Positions 1,837-26,247 of a stretch of DNA of 64,000 nt are shown one piece after another. The DNA lies in contig JBMNJG010000007.1 in NCBI GenBank assembly GCA_050951545.1, positions 448,001-512,000 on the forward strand, written 5' to 3'. Below the pieces are notes generated by a model. The model was not told the DNA's origin and made no database searches. It saw only the letters and a list, made by a program, of their open reading frames with translations. This DNA comes from Limnochordia bacterium. GTDB taxonomy: Bacteria > Bacillota > Limnochordia > DTU080. Position 1 is the first letter of the stretch. Each line of letters begins with the position of its first letter. The translations under genes and the position numbers were made by a program.

Positions 1837-4800
1837 ATGACCTTTTGGATGAGGAAATACTCCAAGCCCTTGGTCGTTTTCTGGATTCTGGTTGCACTAG
1901 GTGTTGCGGTTGGGGTGTCCGCTGCTGGTAGTGTGACCGAAGAGGCGAATCTGCTCGCCAATCCCGGGTTTGAGTTAGGCGAACAGGGTGATTTCCCTGT
2001 CGGCTGGTCAGGCCGAGGGGCTGGAAAATATTGGGTTAAGCTGATTGAAGAAGAAGCCTACTCCGGAGACAGGATGGTCGGTTTGTTTACACCGCACGAC
2101 CGAACGTCGGGTTGGGGGATACAAACCGAGCCAATCCCCGTCACAGCGGGCCGTACATATGAAGCGGCTGGCATGATCAAGCTTCTCGGAGCACGGGTAC
2201 AGATATACATCGAATTCTATGGCAGCTCTGGAGCTCGGATCAAGCCATACGTCGGGCAGACGAGAGTCAACGATGAGTGGACATGGCTCAGCATATCCGG
2301 AGAGGCACCGGAAGGGTCAGCTTACGCTCGTGTGTTACTGTATATGCCGCCTAACGTGCCCAATACGTGTGCCTATTTCGACGACATTACCTTCACCGAG
2401 ATCGTGGAGGAAGAGGTGGCAGAGGAGGACACAAGGCGGAGTCCAGGGACATTCTATGTATCATCTGGCGGCGACAACCACAATGACGGTACCCTTGAGG
2501 CCCCCTGGGCGACTGTAGGGTACGCTTCTGCCCGGGCGATCCCTGGCGATACGATTGTCTTCTTGCCCGGTGAGTACGAAGGGGTGCTAAAGCCGCTGCG
2601 TAGTGGCACGGCAGATGCGCCGATTGTCTTCAGAGCATCGGAGCGCCGAACAGCCCGATTGGCTGGCGAATCAGGTGCGGCCTACGCGATCGAACTATCA
2701 AACGTGGAGCACATTTCCGTCGAGGGCTTTCACGTGAAACCAAAATCATCTCAAGGACGTTGGCTGCTCGTCCAGGGCTCCAAACACATTCGTATCAATG
2801 ACGTCCTGATGGAAGATGCGACTGGTGGAATGCCCTTCCTTATCACTCACAGTGAACACATTCAAGTGCGCGATAGCGTGATTCAGCGGTATATAGGCGG
2901 CAACATGGCGCGGGTTGGCGATTCGGCACACATCCTTTTTGAAGGCAATGCGATTTCCCGCACGGGGCACAGTCCGTTCCAGTTCTACCCGGAAAGATCC
3001 ACCCGCAACGTGGTCATCCGCGGCAACGTCTTTCATGCCGCGTGGGGGCGCAATTTCGAGTTTTTTGGTACGGAAAACATCCTCTTTGAGCATAACATCG
3101 TCACCAATGCTTTCGACGGCGGGCGCTCGGCCAGCACGAATGCCAAGTTCGCCGTGGAGCGGGGCATATTCCGCTTTAATCGGGTGTTTCGCAATTGGGG
3201 CGGAGCACTGCATCTGTATACCTTCCGCGAGCAATGGCTGAGCCACATTCGTCTTTACAACAATGTCTTCGACGACAACTATGAGTACGGCATCGCAACC
3301 AGCGACTCGCCCGCTCAGATGCGTGACGTCGTCTTTGTCAACAACGTGTTCTCCCGCAATGACGTGCATGGGGGTCACCGTCAAGTTCAGTTTCAATCGA
3401 TGGGAATGCCGGAGAAAGGTCCGGAGGGTGAGCTGGTCCCTCGTGTGCGCTTCTTGAGCAATGCTCTTTCCGCCAGCGACCCCGACTTCATGTCAACACT
3501 CAGTTTCGGTGGGCGTCGCTTGGACATCGGTACTGTAGAAAGCGACGCCTGGCGGCAGCCTTCCCTATCGAATCAGTCTGTTCACTTCTCGGGTAATGCG
3601 GCGTTCTCTCCACAGTTTGCTGACGCCAAGACGTACAACCATGCCCTCGCACCTGGTAGCCCACTCATAGATGGCGGTCGCTTCTTGACTTCGACTGTTG
3701 GGGCAGGAGAGGGGCGTACGGTTCGCGTTGAAGACGCGATGTATTTCTACGACGGCTTCGGCATCGAGGGCGAGCAGGGTGATCTCGTGGTGGTCGGATC
3801 GCCGGACCAGTTGGCTCGTATAGTGAAGGTTGATTATGAGGCCAACGAGATCACGCTGGACCGCATCGTGAACTGGCAAGACGGGGCTCCCGTGAGCTTC
3901 CCTTGGGGTGGCCAGGCCCCCGATATGGGGGTGTACGAGCACGGTGCGGGCGGTCGGCCGTCCGTGCAGATAGTGGCGCGCCCCTTTTTCGTTCGACCTC
4001 AAGACGAAGTGCGCTTGTCAGCGACTCTCGCTAATATCGGTGATCCTGTCGAGATTCGCTGGCAGTTGGGTGATGGCACGATCGCTTTTGGTGCCGAATT
4101 GACGCATGTCTATGATGAGCCATACGATTATCCGATACGAGTGAGGGTGACGACGAAGTCGGGAGAGGTCTTTCGCGGCACGGGGTACGTCGTCGTCGAA
4201 CCGATGCGACCAGTCGATGATCCGTTGCTTCATTCGACGTTTGACAAGGAAGACGAAGACTGGTGGTGGTACTGGAAGTGTTACACGCCAGCCCCGGTCG
4301 ATTGGAGCCATGAGATCGATGGTGCATCGGGCAACGGAGTGCTTCGGATCTCGAACCCCGGTGGCGGCACCCTCCCGCTCAGAGTGGCACCCGCCAAATG
4401 GGATATTGACCAGTATCCATGGATTTTCTTGCGTTACCGCGTATCTCCCGGTGCTCCGATTGGGCTCTATCTAGACGGGTTCAGCGATACGGAGGGCAGA
4501 GGGCAAAGAAAGTGGCTTGCTGCGGCATCAGGTGAGCGCAACACCCGTACGGGTCGCTTGACCCCTTACGAACTGATCGACGATGGTAACTGGCATGTGC
4601 TGCTTATGGACGCGCGGCTAATACGTGCCGATTTCCCAGAGGTCAGCGTGTTGAAGAGACTCGGGATGGAGGCGCTGTCGGTATCAAGACAGGGCGATGC
4701 GTACTGGCTCGACGAGATCGCTATAGTGCCCGATGAGGCTCTGCGCAACTCCGCCTGGGAGGAGAAGCTGACGCATAGGCAAAGAGGTCACATCGACATC

Positions 4801-5574
4801 GTTTCGCCAAGAGAGGGAGCAGTAGTAAGTGGCGAGATGGTGCTTGATCTCGCGCTAGTCGCCTATGGCGAAGTCGGCGAGATGCCTACAGACTCGTTCG
4901 TACAGGGAATCACTGTGGATGTTGATGGTCAGGTTGTTCTTTCAACTGCTGACGGCCGTGAAGTTGAGGATCTGCGGATCGATACCAATGCCTTATCCGA
5001 TGGCTCCCATCAACTTGCCGTTACGCTGACCGATGAAGTGGGCATGACGATAACGTGCCGCGCTGCGTTCACGGTGCGCAACTGGCAAGTGATGAGAGAT
5101 CGATTGGAGCCTCCGGAGGAATGGTCATTCTTTGGTGAGACGATGACGACGGATCTAAGCAAGACGACGGCCGAATCAGGTGGCTGGGCGTATGCCTCAG
5201 AGTTGGAGCAGTCCGCTTTCGAGGGCGTATCGGGGAAGGTAAAGACGACCGCCAACGAGGAGTATCTCATCTGGGAAGCCCCAGGGCTACGTAACTTCGA
5301 GATCCTTGTCTATACGACGATGAGTGACATCGGAAGTGTTGTGAGGGTGGAGGCAGACACGGGCGACTCAGAATGGGTCGGTCTTCCATGCGTCACGACA
5401 AGAGCCGGGGCCATCGGGTCTGGAGACCCGTCATGGACCACGTTTACGATTACTGGCAATGGGCCGCAAGGGGCAGAGGCCACTGCTTTTCGGCTAATCG
5501 TCGGATCAGAAGCGCCAGCATATGCACTCGGGGTCGAAGAGGTCGTGTTGGACATACGTTCGTCTTGTTTCTGA
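1837..5574 (+). CDS. Large secreted multidomain carbohydrate-active protein: CBM4/9-like, right-handed beta-helix (lyase-like), PKD, Ig-like and shared C-terminal domain
   Basis: Signal peptide; NLLANPGFE..YFDDITF (CBM-like); FYVSSGGDNHNDGTLEAPWAT..PGDTI..LPGEY (beta-helix start); WQLGDG..THVY (PKD); IDTNALSDGSHQL (Ig-like). Confidence 0.88.
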   Translation: MTFWMRKYSKPLVVFWILVALGVAVGVSAAGSVTEEANLLANPGFELGEQGDFPVGWSGRGAGKYWVKLIEEEAYSGDRMVGLFTPHDRTSGWGIQTEPIPVTAGRTYEAAGMIKLLGARVQIYIEFYGSSGARIKPYVGQTRVNDEWTWLSISGEAPEGSAYARVLLYMPPNVPNTCAYFDDITFTEIVEEEVAEEDTRRSPGTFYVSSGGDNHNDGTLEAPWATVGYASARAIPGDTIVFLPGEYEGVLKPLRSGTADAPIVFRASERRTARLAGESGAAYAIELSNVEHISVEGFHVKPKSSQGRWLLVQGSKHIRINDVLMEDATGGMPFLITHSEHIQVRDSVIQRYIGGNMARVGDSAHILFEGNAISRTGHSPFQFYPERSTRNVVIRGNVFHAAWGRNFEFFGTENILFEHNIVTNAFDGGRSASTNAKFAVERGIFRFNRVFRNWGGALHLYTFREQWLSHIRLYNNVFDDNYEYGIATSDSPAQMRDVVFVNNVFSRNDVHGGHRQVQFQSMGMPEKGPEGELVPRVRFLSNALSASDPDFMSTLSFGGRRLDIGTVESDAWRQPSLSNQSVHFSGNAAFSPQFADAKTYNHALAPGSPLIDGGRFLTSTVGAGEGRTVRVEDAMYFYDGFGIEGEQGDLVVVGSPDQLARIVKVDYEANEITLDRIVNWQDGAPVSFPWGGQAPDMGVYEHGAGGRPSVQIVARPFFVRPQDEVRLSATLANIGDPVEIRWQLGDGTIAFGAELTHVYDEPYDYPIRVRVTTKSGEVFRGTGYVVVEPMRPVDDPLLHSTFDKEDEDWWWYWKCYTPAPVDWSHEIDGASGNGVLRISNPGGGTLPLRVAPAKWDIDQYPWIFLRYRVSPGAPIGLYLDGFSDTEGRGQRKWLAAASGERNTRTGRLTPYELIDDGNWHVLLMDARLIRADFPEVSVLKRLGMEALSVSRQGDAYWLDEIAIVPDEALRNSAWEEKLTHRQRGHIDIVSPREGAVVSGEMVLDLALVAYGEVGEMPTDSFVQGITVDVDGQVVLSTADGREVEDLRIDTNALSDGSHQLAVTLTDEVGMTITCRAAFTVRNWQVMRDRLEPPEEWSFFGETMTTDLSKTTAESGGWAYASELEQSAFEGVSGKVKTTANEEYLIWEAPGLRNFEILVYTTMSDIGSVVRVEADTGDSEWVGLPCVTTRAGAIGSGDPSWTTFTITGNGPQGAEATAFRLIVGSEAPAYALGVEEVVLDIRSSCF

Positions 5575-5851: not shown

Positions 5852-6577
5852 TCACAGGCGGTTGGTTTGGTAACGTGCCCACATATCATCTGCTATGCGC
5901 CAGGACTCTCCCCCCACGCCGTATCTGCTGAAGTGTTGGCATACATTCTCAATGTCTCGATGCAAAAACGCATAGGCTTGCGAGTTGAATCGAGCGTCAA
6001 CGGCCTGAGGAAAGTCGATCACCTTGATGCTGCCCTGCCAGTAAAGGATGTTGAACGGCGACAGGTCGGCATGAACCAGATGATGGGTGAGCCACAGTCT
6101 GATGTTCTCGACGAGACGCTGGTATATTTCCGGCGCTTCATCTGCTTCTAGGTGTACCCTGTTCAGCTGCGACGCCGGTCCGAGTTCATCACCGACATAC
6201 TCCATGAGAATGGCGTTCTCGCTCATGGCCAAGGACAAGGGGACGTCGGCTCCGGCGGCATGCAGCACGCTTAGGGTCTTGAACTCGTTCTCCAACCACA
6301 CGCTGAAATCGACTACCCGGCCCACTTGTGTTTTGTTTCGCGAAGCACGCCGCAAGCGAGAGTCGGCAATGTAGAAGCCTTCCCGGTACGCCGCGTCATG
6401 TCTGAAACCACGAGACTCCGGGTTTGCGTATACCTTAGCGAGCAGCAAGTCGTAACCCGTGGCGGGGTTCGCTTGGCAGCAGTAGGCAGTGGCCTCTTTG
6501 CCGCTCTTCAACGGTTCTAGGACTTCGGTTATCCAACCTTCATCGACGAAGCTTTGTAGTGTGGGCAGTTTTGACAT
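5852..6577 (-). CDS. RIO1-family serine/threonine kinase (bacterial RIO-like)
   Basis: LKSGKEATAY (RIO P-loop), ILMEYVG, LVHADLSPFNIL and VIDFPQAV motifs. Start moved to ATG 6577, after a GAGGGGAG RBS. Confidence 0.92.
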   Translation of the reverse strand: MSKLPTLQSFVDEGWITEVLEPLKSGKEATAYCCQANPATGYDLLLAKVYANPESRGFRHDAAYREGFYIADSRLRRASRNKTQVGRVVDFSVWLENEFKTLSVLHAAGADVPLSLAMSENAILMEYVGDELGPASQLNRVHLEADEAPEIYQRLVENIRLWLTHHLVHADLSPFNILYWQGSIKVIDFPQAVDARFNSQAYAFLHRDIENVCQHFSRYGVGGESWRIADDMWARYQTNRL

Positions 6578-6726
6578 CCTGCTACTCTCCCCTCGCGGGT
6601 GAGAGGCACATGAGCAGCTGCACAGTGTGCTAAAGGTGGCGTCGTGGATGGGAAGGGGCTTTCCGGGAAGCAAGGAGAGGAAAGCTTGGGCTCATCTCTG
6701 CCCTGGGCTCATGAGATGCAGAACGT

Positions 6727-6861: not shown

Positions 6862-6925
6862 CGTTGCGACCATACGGGGGGCCGCGCAAAGAACTGCGGT
6901 AATCTCCCTGCGTCCGCTTGGGTTG

Positions 6926-8307
6926 GTGGTAGGAACCTAGCGATGCGGTCTTCGCGAAGCCCTTCTGCTCATTTTGATCGCCCGAAGGGCCTATTTCCCC
7001 GCCTAAGGGCACGCTTTCCCGCCTTGATTTCGGTTCTGGGGCTACCGGGCAGCACATAACCGAACGGTAGTGACTGCCTTTTTCCACTCAGCCGATTGGG
7101 GTCAGCTCCCCAGTGCGCGATCACAGCGGGCTCGCTCGGGTCCCTCTGCGAACCGACCCTTCAGTGTTAACCCGGTCGGTGTATTTCGAGAAAGGTGGAC
7201 AGATGCAATGGACGCGCTCGGGAAACAGGCTCTGCAGTCAGACACCAGCCGGATTGGTATGTGAGGCCGGGCTAAGGATGTGGCCGCGATGGCAAGAGAG
7301 CCGCCCCATCAACCCCCGGGGCCAATGTACGTGGTAAAAGTGCAGCGATGCGGTCTTCGCGAAGCCCTTTTTGCTCATTTTGACCGCCTGAAGGGCTCTT
7401 TTCCCCGCAAGAGCACGCTTTCCCGCCTTGATTTCGCTTCTGGGGCTACCGGGCAGCACATAACCCGACGGTAGTGACGGCCTTTTCCCACTCAGCCGAT
7501 TGGATCAGCTCTCCAGTGCGCGATCACAGCGGGCTCGCTCGGGTCCCTCTGCGGACCGACCCTTCGGTGTTGCCCCGGTCGGTGCATTCGAACAGAATGG
7601 ACGGACACCATGCACACGCTTGCGAGACTGGCTCGGCAGTCGGACACCAGCCGGATTGGTATGTGAGGCCCGGCTAAGGATGTGGCCGCGATGGCAAGAG
7701 AGCCGCCCTATTTACCCCCGGAGCAGGTGTGGGTGGTAAAAGTGCAGCGATGCGGCCTTCGCGAAGCCCTTTTGGCTGGTCTGGACGGCCTGAAGGGCCC
7801 TTTTCCCCCCAAAAGAGCGCGCTTTCCCGCCCTGGTGGCCCCTCTGGAGCTACCGCGCAGCACATAACCCGACGCAATTGATAGCCTTTTCCCACTCAGT
7901 CGATGGGGTCAGCTCCCCAGTGCGCGATCACAGCTGGCTCGCTCGGGTCCCTCTGCGAACCGACCCTTCAGTGTTAACCCGGTCGGTGCATTTGGAAGAG
8001 AATGGACGGATCAATGGACACGCTCGCGAGACTGGCTCGGTAGTCAGACACCAGCCGGATTGGCATGCGAGTCGGGGCCAAGAATCCGACCGCGATGGCA
8101 AGAGAGCCCCTCATTAACCCCCGGGCCCAATGTACGTGGTAAAAGTGCAGCGATGCGGCCTTCGCGGAGCCCTTTTGGCTCATTTTGATCGCCCGAAGGG
8201 CTCATTTCCCCGCCCAAGGGCACGCTTTCCGGCCTTGATGCCTCTTCCGGAGCTGCCGGGCGGTACATAACCGAACAGTGGCGATACCTTTTTCCCACTC
8301 AGCCGAT
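6926..8307. repeat. Tandem array of ~403-bp non-coding units (3 full copies plus ~170 bp)
   Basis: Anchor AGCGATGCGG starts at 6939, 7344, 7746 and 8149 (periods 405, 402, 403). Shared blocks include CAGTGCGCGATCACAGCnGGCTCGCTCGGGTCCCTCTGCG, GACACCAGCCGGATTGG and CCGCGATGGCAAGAGAGCC. No reading frame is conserved. Confidence 0.97.
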
Positions 8308-8432
8308 GATCCGAGGGTGAAATGCTAATCGACTCCCGGTGGCCACCGGGTCTTAGCTGGCAATGCGCGCGTTTTCGGCGAAAGCTGTGGAAGGATTCTG
8401 GTCTCACGTACCGAACATCCCATCGAGACAAT

Positions 8433-8446
8433 CGAACACATGATCG
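8433..8446. promoter_or_regulatory. LexA/DinR (SOS, Cheo-box)-like operator
   Basis: CGAACACATGATCG differs at one position from the Firmicute consensus CGAAC-RNRY-GTTCG and ends ~20 bp before the likely TTG start at 8465. Confidence 0.45.
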
Positions 8447-8464
8447 TTGTGTGAGGTGAGGCCC

Positions 8465-9526
8465 TTGTACTCTCTCTATGTAGATGAGGTGAACGTGCCG
8501 CTCTCACTGCTACTGACTCGCGAGCTAAAGGCCAGCGAGAAGATCGTTTGGATGGCCTTAACGATGGATGATCAGCTGGAGGAAAGCTTCCTTTTCTCGC
8601 CCAGCCGCCTGGGGCGGCGCACGGGTATGTCCCGGCCTACCGTTCGCAGGGCGACAGCCAAGTTAACCACCGAGGGCTGGTTTGCTCCACCGGCTAGGCG
8701 GGGTCCTAGCCAGACCGCGGCACAGAAGCCATCCCCGGATAGGGTCTCCGTGCCTGTGGAGCTAGTCATGGCTACTGAAATCCATGCACAGGCCAAATTG
8801 GTTTATGCCCTACTGCTGTCCAAACCTACGGATCCACCTCGCAAAAGGCAGTTCACATACGCTGAGTTAGCCGGCCGGATGAGTCTGAGCCCCCAAACCA
8901 TCAAACACGCGGCTCGTCAGTTGGCCAAGCATGGTTGGCTGGAGATGGAGCAGGCGCACAAGCGGGCACCGATTCGCTTCACTCTCCACAACCCGGTTGA
9001 TAAGCGAAATGTAAAAGAAATACTAGACGTGCAGGATGAGCTCCACCGCGCTACGCACCTCGGAGAGGCTCTCATGCAGGCTATCTTCTTGGCGCTTGTC
9101 GATTGCCTTGACTTCGACGACGGAATGCGCCCAGGTTTCATGAGGAACCCAGCAACTGGCAAGCGTCTGGAGGTCGATCTCTTCTATTACTTGCACAATA
9201 CGGCCATGGAGTTCAATGGGGCGCAACACTACCGCGTCACGGAGCGGAATTCGGCTGAGCAGGTCCATAAGCAGCAATGCCGTGACCAGACCAAACAGCA
9301 GATCTGCGCTAAGAAGAAGATCAAGCTGATCGTGATTCAGACTCACGAGCTGTCCTGCAAGATCATCAAGCGCAAGATTCACAGGCGGCTGCCATTCCGG
9401 CGCGGTCAGGACTTCAACCGGAAGCTCATCAACTATCTCGAGTGTAGATGCGGTGAGTACCAGCAAAGAATAGATGAACGTGGCTGGGGAACCGCCAGCC
9501 AATCTGAGAGAAAGCAAGACGAGTAA
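8465..9526 (+). CDS. Tandem winged-HTH protein with a C-terminal PD-(D/E)XK (Vsr/DUF559-like) endonuclease domain
   Basis: Two internally similar HTH modules (VPLSLLLTRELKASEKIVWMAL..SPSRLGRRTGMSRPTVRRATAKLTTEGWF and VPVELVMATEIHAQAKLVYALL..TYAELAGRMSLSPQTIKHAARQLAKHGWL). Nuclease motifs RNPATGKRLEVDLFY..AMEFNGAQHY..RDQTKQQIC..IKLIVI. Start placed at TTG 8465, after GAGGTG. Confidence 0.88.
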   Translation: MYSLYVDEVNVPLSLLLTRELKASEKIVWMALTMDDQLEESFLFSPSRLGRRTGMSRPTVRRATAKLTTEGWFAPPARRGPSQTAAQKPSPDRVSVPVELVMATEIHAQAKLVYALLLSKPTDPPRKRQFTYAELAGRMSLSPQTIKHAARQLAKHGWLEMEQAHKRAPIRFTLHNPVDKRNVKEILDVQDELHRATHLGEALMQAIFLALVDCLDFDDGMRPGFMRNPATGKRLEVDLFYYLHNTAMEFNGAQHYRVTERNSAEQVHKQQCRDQTKQQICAKKKIKLIVIQTHELSCKIIKRKIHRRLPFRRGQDFNRKLINYLECRCGEYQQRIDERGWGTASQSERKQDE

Positions 9527-9713
9527 TCACCCTGGGTCACCTTGTCCGTTTCGTCAGGGCTCGCATCAGCCGTGCAGCCAATGTTGATGCGCGTCCACCC
9601 GCCGCTGGCGATCAGGGCAACACGTCTGCACTGATCTTCACTCAGACGGCACCGTGACATAACCAGCAGTTGACCGCCATGTCTCGTGTGCACTCCCAAT
9701 CCCCCTATCGACG

Positions 9714-10150
9714 GGGTCCACGCAAAAAATAGCGGAAAGTAAGTGCCGAACGTAGATTCCCAACAAGGAGTTTATGGGGCAAATGGAAAAAGAGATCTCT
9801 GACAACCATCCGCGGGCTCACGTCCGCAGAAGGAGAGATCTCTTTAACTACCAGTATAGTATATCCGGCCGAAACCATCAGCACTCAAGAGGCACCTTCG
9901 CAGGAGGAGATGAACCCTTTATCCGAGGCTGGAGGCCGCTGGCTACCCCATTGGCAGCGGATGCGTAGAAAGCGCCTGTAAGCAGGTTGTTGTTAGGCGC
10001 CACGAGCAATCGCGTTGGAGCCAACTTGGGGCACAGCAGATGCTAAACGTTGCAGCATACTCCCACGGTGAACAGTGGGACGATTTCTGGGAGAGGCTGG
10101 AGGCCGCATGATTAGGAACGGGTGTTCGCCGCGATTTCACGTGTGCACCC
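9714..10150 (+). mobile_element. Internally deleted ISKra4/ISLre2-type insertion sequence (MITE-like, ~437 bp)
   Basis: Imperfect 22-bp terminal inverted repeats GGGTCCACGCAAAAAATAGCGG (9714-9735) and GGGTGCACACGTGAAATCGCGG (reverse complement of 10129-10150), 16/22 match. Contains a transposase C-terminus YPRLEAAGYPIGSGCVESACKQVV..RWSQLGAQQML..WDDFW ending at TGA 10111. No target duplication seen. Confidence 0.75.
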
Positions 10151-10270
10151 ACCATACGGAGTTTCAGTGGAGGACGATCCGCGCCAGGCACTCAGCTCCA
10201 TGTGTTTGCAGGCATCTGGGTCGCGGCGACTAAGATGTGCATGGACCTGGTGACATGGAGGCTGGATCAG

Positions 10271-23889: not shown

Positions 23890-26247
23890 CTGGTCCTTAC
23901 CCTTACTTAACACCGTGGCTCATGGTGAGCGGGCGAATATGCTGAACAACTCAACTGCTTCCACTGCGTTGTCCAAATGCTGCAACCCGCGCCAAAGAAC
24001 CTGGGTGCCGGGCATGCCGTCGCTTTTTCGCCCCAAGTGTCCGCCTAGCTGCCCAACCATCCGAACCGCTTCAGCCATGGTAGGTGGTTTGTCCGGTGGA
24101 CGAGGGTTCTTGGTGACAAGGCAGCACAGCCGTTTTCCATTCAACGTCAGTAAAGAATGAAGTGCAAGCAACATCGGGGGTGTCCCGGCCCAGCATGGTC
24201 AGGTGGTAGATCCTCCAGGCCACGACCATGTCCAGTCCAATACAGGCTTGCAGGCTATCAGCTGTGCCGAGTTGCCGATTGCGGATACGACAGCCACTCT
24301 TCAGCGTACGATGGTATACTTCAATACCCCAGCGGCCAGCGTACCATTCCACTCTCGTTTTGGCATCCTTCGCAGTTTCGACCGGGACCGTCGTGAGTAG
24401 CATCCATTCTAGCGGTACTGTCGGTTGCGCAGTATCGCTTTCCGGAGGGAGCTCTGAAAGGCGGACTGCCCATAGCACTATAGGTGGTCCCTTGGCATCG
24501 CGTTTAGGGGGACGCACCTCTACCTTGGAAAAACGCAGCTCAACCCAAGTATCGCGAGCTTTTCGAGAGCCAGCATGTGGAATGTGAATTTTGAGCTTCG
24601 CGGCCACGTCGCGGGCAGCCAAAAAATCCCACAGGTAGCTTTGTTCTTCTCTATCAACTTTGCGAAGAAGCGCCCTATCAGACCTGATCAGAAGCCCAGG
24701 CCCGAGAGGATCCTTGGTTGCCTCGACAAGCAATTCATACATGTCAGATTCACGATCACCGACACTGACGATCAGTGTATCGGGACACAGCTTCTGTATC
24801 TCGGCCACCTTGCGGAAACTGTGCAGCCACTTGATGCTTTCCTTTTCCTCGATAGGTAGCCGCTGTCTTTTCTTGCTTTTGCCAGTTTCCTGTGGGTCGC
24901 GTACCCAACATTGCGCATCGAGAATTCCTAACGGCGTTCCCTCTGGCGTAAAAGCCAAGGTATCGTGCAAGAGCATACCGAGACCCTCACCGCCGGAACC
25001 TGTGGGACCAAGCCCCTCCGTCATAGGATGCGTATTATAATCGAGAGTGGTGGTATCCTGAGGGGCGAGCACCACGGGATGCTCCTTGATACGCTCAATT
25101 GTGGCCTCCGTATGAGGCGTGAGTATTACGTCCATGCTAACCGCCTTATTGCTGAAGAATCGATATGCCGCCATCGTGCGAGCCTTCGAACCGCATGCCT
25201 CTGGTATGTTCGCCTCGGAGTTATTGTAGAAATCCTGAGCGAGTATGTACAGACGCTGCTTGAGCCTTTCGTCAAAGAAACGAACGGTGCCAAACTCCTC
25301 TTCAGCCCAGTGAGCTGGCTCTTCAGGCCGAGGTAGCTCACATAGTTGCACTGGTGGAGCCTGACACAGACTTTGCCGCCACTCAGCGCAAAGAGGATAG
25401 AGAAAGATTCGTTTCCGAACACCGTCTCGCCTTCCTGCTGTGACGCCGACTTCCTCCCAGTTGGCCGCTTTGTAGCATGTGCCTAAGAAATGAGAAGGAT
25501 CAACAAAGCTCTCTACCAATAACGGGCGAACGGCGTAGCGCTCCTCCCAATCGTCCGCCAGCCGAGCAAGCGCCAAGGATAGCACGTGCGAGGCCAGATT
25601 GGGTACTTCCACCGAGGGTGCGATCAAGAAGCGAGCATTGCAGACAACCTGTGGCAAATTCGCTCTTCTGGCTGCTTCAGTCCAACCAATGTGTTCGTCA
25701 CGTGCCTTGAGCGCAAACGATGCCGACGTGAAAGCTAAGGCCCCTATGGCCCCATAGATCGAGCTCTCCACCAGGTACCTAATCTGAGCGCCACATAGCG
25801 GGCCGCTCCCCAAGTAATGATAGGTATCCAAAAGAGATCGCCAGGTCTGATGCGCTTTGGCGTAGCGACTACTAACGGGTTGCACAATGATCTCACCCAA
25901 CTCCTGTAGCGAGCAGGCGACCTGTGCAACCTCTATCCCAACAGGATCACCCAGATCCTGGAAAGCAAAGGTGATGTTAACTGCAGGTAGGGAGACCAAG
26001 TCTCTACGTTCAAGCTCCGCAAGAGCTTTGCGGCAACCCATCTCCTTCGGGTCACCATTAGGCGAACGCCAATCGTTCTCATCACACAATCGCCGGGACA
26101 ACTCTCGGCGCGAGATCGAAGGCTCCGCCTTGACCCACCTGTTAATCATCTCGATAATGGACTTGGTAAAATGAAAGCCGTTGATCCACATCATGCCTAA
26201 AGGCTAGCATGATCAACCCCCCGGTGTCAAGCGTGTGCGAGGACCAG
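23890..26247 (-). mobile_element. IS4-family (IS50/Tn5-like) insertion sequence, 2358 bp, with a 9-bp target-site duplication
   Basis: Ends CTGGTCCTTACCCTTACTTAACACCG and (reverse complement) CTGGTCCTCGCACACGCTTGACACCG, 19/26 match. Flanking direct repeat GTCAGCCAG at 23881-23889 and 26248-26256. Confidence 0.93.
23920..26194 (-). pseudogene. IS4/Tn5-like transposase fused to an N-terminal DUF4338 domain, frameshifted near the C-terminus
   Basis: WAEEEFG..DERL, AAYRFFSN, QDTT, GDRESD and YAGRWGIEVYHRTLKSGC (DDE/YREK). One extra base near 24133 moves the tail (LGGHLGRKSDGMPG..LWRGL) into ORF 23920-24174. This could be a real mutation or a sequencing error. Confidence 0.9.

Follow-up and report, generated by a model that had tools for sequence, protein, structure and literature searches.

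We analysed a 64,000-nt stretch of the genome of a Limnochordia bacterium (GCA_050951545.1, contig JBMNJG010000007.1, positions 448,001-512,000, forward strand; hereafter the window, whose positions serve as coordinates), in which a long tandem-repeat array lies upstream of a gene for a nuclease-like protein. Our results indicate that window positions 6878-10150 (~3.3 kb) are one copy of a multicopy transposon-like DNA element in which the array and the gene for the nuclease lie together. Imperfect inverted repeats form its termini, with 9-bp duplications at unrelated sites; it carries a single conserved gene, and 15 copies with array and gene are present in the genome (3.64 Mb, 16 contigs, among them those labelled C7, C10, C11, C14 and C16 below). 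An earlier reading of the bare DNA letters (the original prediction) had taken gene and array for one functional unit, for example an RNA-associated nuclease, a site-specific mobile element with an amplified end, or a DNA-binding/replication module. The second of these three options came closest, apart from its site specificity, which the unrelated 9-bp targets contradict.

The copies to which the window element belongs were grouped as family A, for which the terminal inverted repeats and the target duplications were defined. In the alignment of these copies, similarity starts 61 bp 5' of the array and stops ~625 bp past the stop codon, at fixed points. The majority left (L) end matches the reverse complement of the right (R) end at 16 of 27 positions, a score reached by 48 of 100,000 shuffles, and the two ends of the window copy itself match at 14 of 27. 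Eight pairs of L and R ends were available, and four of them are flanked by perfect duplications (9/9), one by an 8/9 duplication and one by a 9/9 duplication with a shifted R end; the duplicated targets are mutually unrelated. A search of the genome with the end pattern found 21 places, 20 of which lie in family A, and no other inverted end pair carrying a duplication was found genome-wide. The same element junctions were seen in a DNA sequencing run. The features of the window copy are as follows.

6869-6877, no strand assigned: left copy of the target-site duplication, 9 bp, ACCATACGG, an identical 9-mer standing just outside both element ends
6878-6904, plus strand: left terminal inverted repeat (L end) and start of the element, where similarity among copies begins
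6926-8307, plus strand: subterminal tandem array, with full units at 6939-7342, 7343-7745 and 7746-8148 and a partial unit at 8149-8307 (unit positions 1-158)
7054-7061, 7458, 7862 and 8265 (once per unit), and 9657-9664 near the inner right end, all plus strand: ACATAACC box, a candidate protein-binding site
8308-8464, plus strand: spacer, likely promoter/5' leader, with two haplotypes among copies
8433-8446, no strand assigned: LexA box of the Cheo type, CGAACACATGATCG, which the ribosome-binding site follows after ~20 nt
8465-9526, plus strand: gene for the 353-aa protein, with two winged-helix domains (residues ~1-177) and a predicted Vsr-like PD-(D/E)XK nuclease domain (residues ~196-335)
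9527-10150, plus strand: variable 3' non-coding part, with large indels between copies and no conserved open reading frame (ORF)
9674-9696, plus strand: inner R-like end, a sequence at which some copies appear to terminate
9714-9735, plus strand: inner L-like end GGGTCCACGCAAAAAATAGCGG; a mini-element-like segment of ~437 bp extends from it to the outer R end
10115-10128, no strand assigned: second LexA-type box GGAACGGGTGTTCG, inside the right end; the R-end box is found in 10 copies
10124-10150, minus strand: right terminal inverted repeat (R end) and end of the element, placed by copy alignment and end match
10151-10159, no strand assigned: right copy of the target-site duplication, 9 bp, ACCATACGG, matching the left copy

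Because the window copy has both an inner R-like and an inner L-like end, its last ~437 bp resemble a mini-element, and the same arrangement is found in the copy at C16:834. Other rearranged forms were also observed. In a deletion derivative at C14:234-1048, gene position ~427 is fused to the final 38 bp of the right end, and the same joint (window 8873 to 10113) occurs in contigs of three RNA-library runs. At C10:61403-63855, a solo family-A array is split by a ~2.45-kb insertion, at which the unit stops at position 235 and resumes at position 231; the insertion contains open frames of 516 and 249 aa that look by eye like IstA/IstB of the IS21 type. The 21st place found with the end pattern, C11:77513, lies outside any recognised family-A element.

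Gene and array are closely linked throughout the genome. One array unit gave 85 matches and the protein gave 34, namely 13 full-length copies (97-100% amino-acid identity), two broken copies, four members of a sister family B, eight of a sister family C, and remnants. Among 26 array pieces, 15 lie directly upstream of a full-length-equivalent gene, three lie beside gene remnants, and eight are solo fragments or ends; dispersal of the unit independently of the gene, which would have spoken against the predicted linkage, is thus a minor pattern, with 18 of the 26 pieces beside a gene or remnant. Every full-length gene copy (15/15) has an array upstream, and all 15 gene-linked arrays stop at unit position 158. 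The sister families carry repeats as well. Family B, whose protein is 54-55% identical to that of family A, has ~270-bp units downstream of its gene, which share 60-63% identity with a portion of the A unit, the strand being the same (E 2e-11 to 6e-8). Families C1 and C2, with eight copies and proteins at 47-49% identity, have units of 94-106 bp, and in C2 the 94-bp units lie downstream and their first ~45 bp also form the C2 left end, in direct orientation. Family A differs from its sisters in having the largest unit (404 bp against 94-106 bp in the family-C sisters) and an array upstream rather than downstream of the gene. These data agree with the proposal that gene and array form one unit. 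The gene copies are 97.7-99.4% identical in DNA, and their polymorphic sites fall at third, first and second codon positions in numbers of 42, 22 and 7, which indicates that the protein is under purifying selection.

The protein is also widespread outside this genome. A word-indexed protein search returned eight clusters; a full HMMER scan with a 10-sequence profile returned 379 representatives at E <= 1e-30, each standing for a cluster at 50% identity, and 2740 at E <= 1e-10. Presence was confirmed at 294 loci in other genomes, and the best 80 belong to Limnochordia, Symbiobacteriaceae, Thermaerobacter and other metagenome-assembled genomes of Bacillota, often with many loci per genome. Plasmids gave no match to the protein, and phages gave matches to the nuclease domain only, in six records. 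Among 31 genomes (the own genome and 30 relatives), 11 contain the protein, with up to 13 matches outside the own genome. Neither of the same-genus genomes (95% and 91% complete) gave a match, whereas up to 13 were obtained in genomes of the family and order that are more distant, which suggests that this species gained or expanded the element families recently. Within other genomes, copies share the gene plus 400-600 bp upstream. Tandem repeats with a period of at least 40 were detected at 21 of 79 distant-homolog loci, mostly within 1.5 kb of the gene.

At the level of modelled fold and motif, the protein joins a RepE/pi-like winged-helix pair to a Vsr-like (EDxHD/DUF559-type) nuclease with an invariant D...E-x-N-G-x-Q-H...R-D-x-x-K signature. 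The ORF spans 8447-9526, and the 353-aa protein is read from a TTG at 8465, which is preceded by a GAGGTGAGG Shine-Dalgarno-like run; the representative of its database cluster starts identically. Pfam recognised two winged-helix/HTH_36-type stretches, in line with the two tandem winged helix-turn-helix (HTH) modules proposed originally, and nothing in the C-terminal third; Pfam and NCBIfam searches together returned HTH families only and no transposase of a known catalytic class. The motif quoted in the original prediction, RNPATGKRLEVD..EFNGAQHY..RD..K, is indeed contained in the translation. In an alignment of 57 homologs, D238, E249, G252, H255, D274 and K277 are invariant, as is N251 in the closer set. 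The full AlphaFold model has a predicted local distance difference test score (pLDDT) of 91.5 and a predicted template-modelling score of 0.86, and the nuclease domain modelled alone has a pLDDT of 85.4. In the model, the N-terminal ~177 residues match the pi initiator on iteron DNA (2nra_C, Z 8.4, 165 residues aligned) and RepE54 (1rep_C, Foldseek E 8e-3, TM 0.47). The nuclease domain alone matches Vsr (1cw0_A, Z 8.6, root-mean-square deviation (rmsd) 3.6, 109 residues aligned), the homing endonuclease I-Bth0305I (3r3p_B, Z 8.4, rmsd 2.9, 93 of 98 residues aligned, 17% identity), 3hrl_A (Z 7.9) and TnsA (Z 6.3, Foldseek E 0.26); lower-ranked matches are mostly nucleases of the restriction-endonuclease fold. 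Consistently, residues 198-318 have matches (1e-11 to 6e-6) among PHROG families annotated as 'homing endonuclease', 'intron encoded nuclease' and 'HNH endonuclease', and PHROG replication-initiator families match the N-terminal part at 1e-7. A sequence-profile search of solved structures returned HTH proteins only, and neither Vsr nor 3R3P. Of the Vsr/DUF559-like assignment made originally, the Vsr-like fold is supported by the model. The Pfam models DUF559 (PF04480) and DUF2726 (PF10881) did not match the window protein, even at E <= 10 with its C-terminal 166 aa. A weak DUF2726 match was obtained for five of the 57 homologs (best E 0.001), and atlas look-alikes of the protein include clusters with 26% of members carrying DUF559 and 14% carrying DUF2726.

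The array is probably an amplified subterminal segment of the element rather than an RNA gene. Tandem Repeats Finder reported a single array at 6939-8307 with a period of 404, 3.4 copies, 84% matches, 1% indels and a score of 1902, which fits the 3.4 copies of a ~403-bp unit described originally. In-register direct repeats start at 6926, 7331, 7733 and 8136, so the start at 6926 given in the original prediction is correct, and the array ends 158 bp before the TTG of the gene, close to the ~160 bp stated there. The unit is non-coding, as was also proposed: whichever of the six frames is read, stops are lacking in no more than 0-3 of 50 units, and of 130 indels among units just 25 have a length divisible by three. 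A coding reading was rejected on these two grounds. Array length varies among copies from about 2 to 6 units, the extremes being 1.7 (in an array truncated at a contig end) and 6.0. Across the 50 aligned full units, mean pairwise identity is 84% (range 72-98%). Mean identity between copies is 83.9% for the third unit from the gene, 86.8% for the second, 88.9% for the partial gene-adjacent unit and 89.0% for the spacer, as against 98.3% for all positions of the gene and 97.0% for its third codon positions. The non-coding left part is therefore ~4-fold more diverged than nearly neutral sites of the gene. Among 405 unit columns, 258 are polymorphic; only 72 of these are singletons and 117 have the minor allele in at least five units, and the scarcity of singletons suggests that old variants have been shuffled by recombination.

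The array perhaps carries extra binding sites for the protein, for which the ACATAACC box, present once per unit, is a candidate. In the genome, 81 of its 141 occurrences lie inside family-A elements, and a box of this type is kept in A units, B units and the B left end, with a related GATGTAACCG in family C2. Doubtful, though to be taken seriously, is the alternative that the array has no function and is a satellite, made by slippage or unequal crossing-over and tolerated by the element, which would replace only the binding-site part of our interpretation. Such a satellite would fit the variation in copy number from ~2 to 6, the mosaic make-up of the units from shared variants and the fact that only 21 of the 79 distant loci have a detectable repeat. 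Three results weigh against binding sites, and a satellite would also fit the first two of them. Clustering of the conserved unit columns is not significant, their longest run being 15 where permutations gave 11.4 on average and 30 at most. Local alignments of the unit with the L end, the R end, the inner ends and the spacer score no better than shuffles do. Finally, the ACATAACC box shows no enrichment around distant homologs, since its density is 0.05 per kb close to them and equally 0.05 per kb farther away. An impression formed by eye, in which the R end would derive from the unit as a degenerate fragment, was rejected on the same shuffle-level alignment scores. Minisatellites inside MITEs of bacteria (miniature transposable elements with inverted repeats) have been described (PMC4596501). 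Against a mere satellite stand the homology of the units of families A and B despite proteins only 54-55% identical, the presence of a repeat in every family of the genome, the C2 unit that begins with the end sequence of its element, and the constant gene-proximal boundary of the array.

The resemblance of the N-terminal ~177 residues to the iteron-bound pi and RepE initiators raises another explanation of the repeats, namely that they are iterons of an integrated mini-replicon, or a partition site, with the protein as initiator and the array as origin. The PHROG replication-initiator matches at 1e-7, the Pfam HTH_36 assignment and the direct repeats themselves would all be expected of such a replicon. 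However, units of 94-404 bp far exceed the ~20 bp of iterons as generally known, the array has a G+C content of 58-63% with no AT-rich stretch, and the protein has no plasmid relatives. Moreover, the copies are chromosomal insertions with target duplications, and initiators of this kind have no conserved nuclease domain. We therefore regard an integrated replicon as improbable; of the replication module offered in the original prediction, the RepE/pi-like double winged-helix fold stands, whereas short iterons, an AT-rich region and plasmid relatives are missing.

Even less probable is that each unit encodes a structured or guide RNA that partners the nuclease. A long conserved non-coding unit beside a nuclease gene in a mobile element is indeed reminiscent of OMEGA systems, and a few short, mismatched pieces of RNA-library contigs (75-176 nt) map to the array, although such contigs cannot show a discrete transcript. 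Rfam gave no match to the array at E <= 1. Consensus folding was performed with RNAalifold on the 50 aligned units for both strands, and pairing was compared with controls in which the 3' partner was slid by 1-3 columns. Changes on both sides of a pair were found for 11 of 120 pairs on the plus strand and 11 of 121 on the minus strand, against 5-13 and 2-11 in the slid controls, that is, no covariation above controls; in 34 and 24 pairs, respectively, at least 10% of cells fail to pair. Compared with dinucleotide shuffles, the folding energy of single units gave z values of +0.54 (plus strand) and +0.76 (minus strand), showing no excess stability. Short palindromes such as CTTCGCGAAG are conserved among units yet never covary. 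A structured-RNA reading was rejected on the absence of an Rfam match, of covariation and of excess folding stability, and the original description of the unit as structured, with several hairpins kept, was not confirmed at the RNA level. The protein points the same way, being a protein-based DNA-binding module joined to a Vsr-like nuclease, which is not of the RuvC/HNH type, and we know of no RNA-guided member of the Vsr-like fold. The suggested RNA-associated nuclease in the style of HEARO or omegaRNA is therefore not supported.

Expression of the gene is probably held down by LexA and released on DNA damage, as judged from its upstream boxes. In 15/15 family-A, 4/4 family-B and 9/9 family-C copies, the gene is closely preceded by a LexA-type box in the same relative place, and the presence of the box in every copy of every family suggests SOS control. 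The consensus used was the Bacillus-type GAAC-N4-GTTC. Four such boxes precede the lexA gene of this genome. Genome-wide counts (7.28 Mb, both strands) are seven exact and 161 one-mismatch boxes, many of them inside these elements. The box within the right end lies 74 bp upstream of the start (10202) of a neighbouring 981-aa FAD-oxidoreductase/HEAT-repeat ORF, and for this reason the insertion may have put the neighbouring gene under DNA-damage control or changed its promoter.

As the element encodes no known transposase and no other element shares its ends, the likeliest mobility enzyme is its own winged-helix nuclease. Sites at the element ends and within the array units would be recognised by the winged helices. 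The nuclease would cleave the ends and cut the target with a 9-bp stagger, with joining and gap filling left to host repair. Repeated breakage at the array end, followed by recombinational or error-prone repair, might account for the changes in array copy number, the mosaic units and the ~fourfold excess divergence. Of these proposals, the role as mobility enzyme is the firmest, SOS control comes second, and the array as amplified subterminal sites is the least firm. We hold this explanation of the element as a whole to be about as likely as not. Taken together, the proposals would define a new class of bacterial transposon, in which a double winged-helix protein with a Vsr-like nuclease is the sole enzyme, SOS signals act as the switch, 9-bp staggered cuts are joined by the host, and long iteron-like arrays assemble or regulate the cutting complex. 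We offer this complete scheme tentatively, as one that could well be wrong.

Several observations count against this scheme or against parts of it. A Vsr-type nuclease is unable to join DNA and no transposase of such a kind is known, so that a nuclease-only mechanism lacks both a strand-transfer step and a precedent. The fold assignment rests on Z scores of ~8, which are middling by the tool's own scale, and no Foldseek match reached E <= 0.001. Two of the eight end pairs have no clear duplication. A search for empty sites with the element flanks in the 30 relatives gave nothing usable, the same-genus genomes matching at 65-69% or not at all. Copies within other genomes are only 65-88% identical, so recent transposition is seen in the own genome alone. 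Metatranscriptome contigs from three runs cover the gene region 8668-9538, but parts lacking coverage are uninformative, DNA carry-over is possible and they do not prove transcription. As for SOS control, the box of family A reads GATC in place of the GTTC of the consensus, no LexA-type box lies within 260 bp of recA, and only six of 40 distant homolog loci have such a box, mostly in one Limnochordia genome.

The strongest rival to the nuclease as mobility enzyme is mobilisation in trans, in which a transposase encoded elsewhere, for example a DDE enzyme, moves a non-autonomous element and the nuclease is a selfish homing, addiction or defence passenger. Duplications of 9 bp and inverted ends are, as is generally known, the usual marks of DDE enzymes, and the genome has 10 Transposase_mut, 14 DDE_Tnp_1 and nine rve matches as well as the IS21-type element. 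A transposase in trans would supply the strand transfer that is impossible for the nuclease alone, and the nearest relatives of the nuclease are homing-endonuclease-like phage genes. On the other side, the end pattern is confined to family A (20 of 21 places), no other duplicated inverted pair was found, and the one type of DDE element compared in detail, an IS4-like element, has other ends and 7-8-bp duplications. The same gene, with nothing else beside it, is carried by three or four diverged families whose ends differ, which is unlike a random passenger, and PADLOC returned no meaningful match that would mark a defence nuclease. We accordingly consider mobilisation in trans unlikely, although it is the alternative that deserves most attention, and retain the encoded nuclease as the likeliest mobility enzyme.

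A partner transposon with the same ends was sought by the end-pattern search of the genome and none was found; the IS4-like element abutting two copies was set aside on account of its different ends. This IS4/IS5-type element (DDE_Tnp_1) is 1.72 kb long and present in three 99.8%-identical copies (C7:658689-659477, C11:2090-2878 and C16:36959-37747). It has its own inverted ends, and two of its three copies abut a family-A terminus. Beside the copy at C16:36959-37747 lies a ~142-bp nearly perfect tandem repeat (99-100% identity, ~4 copies). In the window itself, a weak DDE_Tnp_1 match (E 1e-4) was seen at 24260-24544, within an open frame of 710 aa on the minus strand. On the upstream side of the element lie genes for a secreted-type protein of 1245 aa that has beta-helix and PKD domains (1837-5574) and for a bacterial RIO1-type kinase (5852-6673, minus strand); the element occupies the divergent intergenic region that separates the kinase gene from the oxidoreductase gene.

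To our knowledge, the well-studied prokaryotic transposons all move by DDE/DEDD, HUH, serine or tyrosine enzymes, and a nuclease of the restriction-endonuclease fold takes part only as a helper, as TnsA does. Vsr-like nucleases, for their part, are known as repair enzymes and homing endonucleases. The element described here has the anatomy of a transposon, yet all it encodes is a homing-endonuclease-like nuclease with an initiator-like DNA-binding module attached. If this protein drives movement, homing endonucleases and transposons would be linked, and a cut-and-repair route to target duplications would be implied; should it turn out to be a passenger, what is left is a mini-transposon with unusual cargo. 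As its 379 clusters indicate, the family is not a rare one, and many genomes of Bacillota from digesters and bioreactors contain it in multiple copies. Genome annotation misses it, because there is no Pfam nuclease model for it and its members are labelled 'hypothetical protein'. In the literature searched, with subscription journals and ISfinder outside its coverage, we did not find such a gene-plus-repeat element described. With likely SOS control and a fast-evolving, copy-number-variable array, the element offers a tractable case for how a nuclease reshapes the DNA beside its own gene.

Compared with bacterial insertion sequences, the element is similar in its inverted repeats, target duplications, single gene, many copies, mini-element-like derivatives and fragments. 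In contrast, it encodes no DDE, DEDD, HUH, serine or tyrosine enzyme, and it contains a long subterminal array of 404-bp units. TnsA of Tn7 is a transposon-encoded nuclease of the restriction-endonuclease fold that cuts the element ends and works with the DDE transposase TnsB and with TnsC. It is among the fold matches of our nuclease domain, far weaker than Vsr and I-Bth0305I, and no TnsB/TnsC-type partner is encoded in the window element. With pi of R6K and RepE of mini-F, the protein shares a tandem winged-helix pair, at middling scores. These initiators have no nuclease domain and act on iterons of ~20 bp beside an AT-rich region, whereas we found a nuclease domain, GC-rich units of 94-404 bp and chromosomal insertions. 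OMEGA, HEARO/IscB and CRISPR systems differ in that our nuclease is Vsr-like rather than RuvC/HNH and the array has no RNA signal. A minisatellite in a MITE of Porphyromonas gingivalis is likewise a tandem repeat inside a bacterial transposable element; that MITE is reported to be non-coding (PMC4596501), whereas the 404-bp units here are homologous across families and accompanied by their own gene.

Among the closest known systems are the EDxHD homing endonucleases, represented by I-Bth0305I, which combines a Vsr-like active site with a NUMOD DNA-binding region, is encoded in a group I intron, homes to one cognate site and leaves 2-base overhangs (PMC3239194). The model of the window protein has the same Vsr-like fold (3r3p_B), and by sequence pattern its acidic and histidine residues are similar to those of I-Bth0305I, for which D196, N208, H213 and D222 are given (PMC3239194). 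In both cases, a selfish nuclease gene is fused to an N-terminal DNA-binding module. This module consists of two winged helices in our protein and of NUMOD motifs in I-Bth0305I (PMC3239194). Moreover, I-Bth0305I homes from an intron and makes cuts with 2-base overhangs (PMC3239194), whereas the window protein belongs to an element with inverted ends, unrelated insertion sites and 9-bp duplications.

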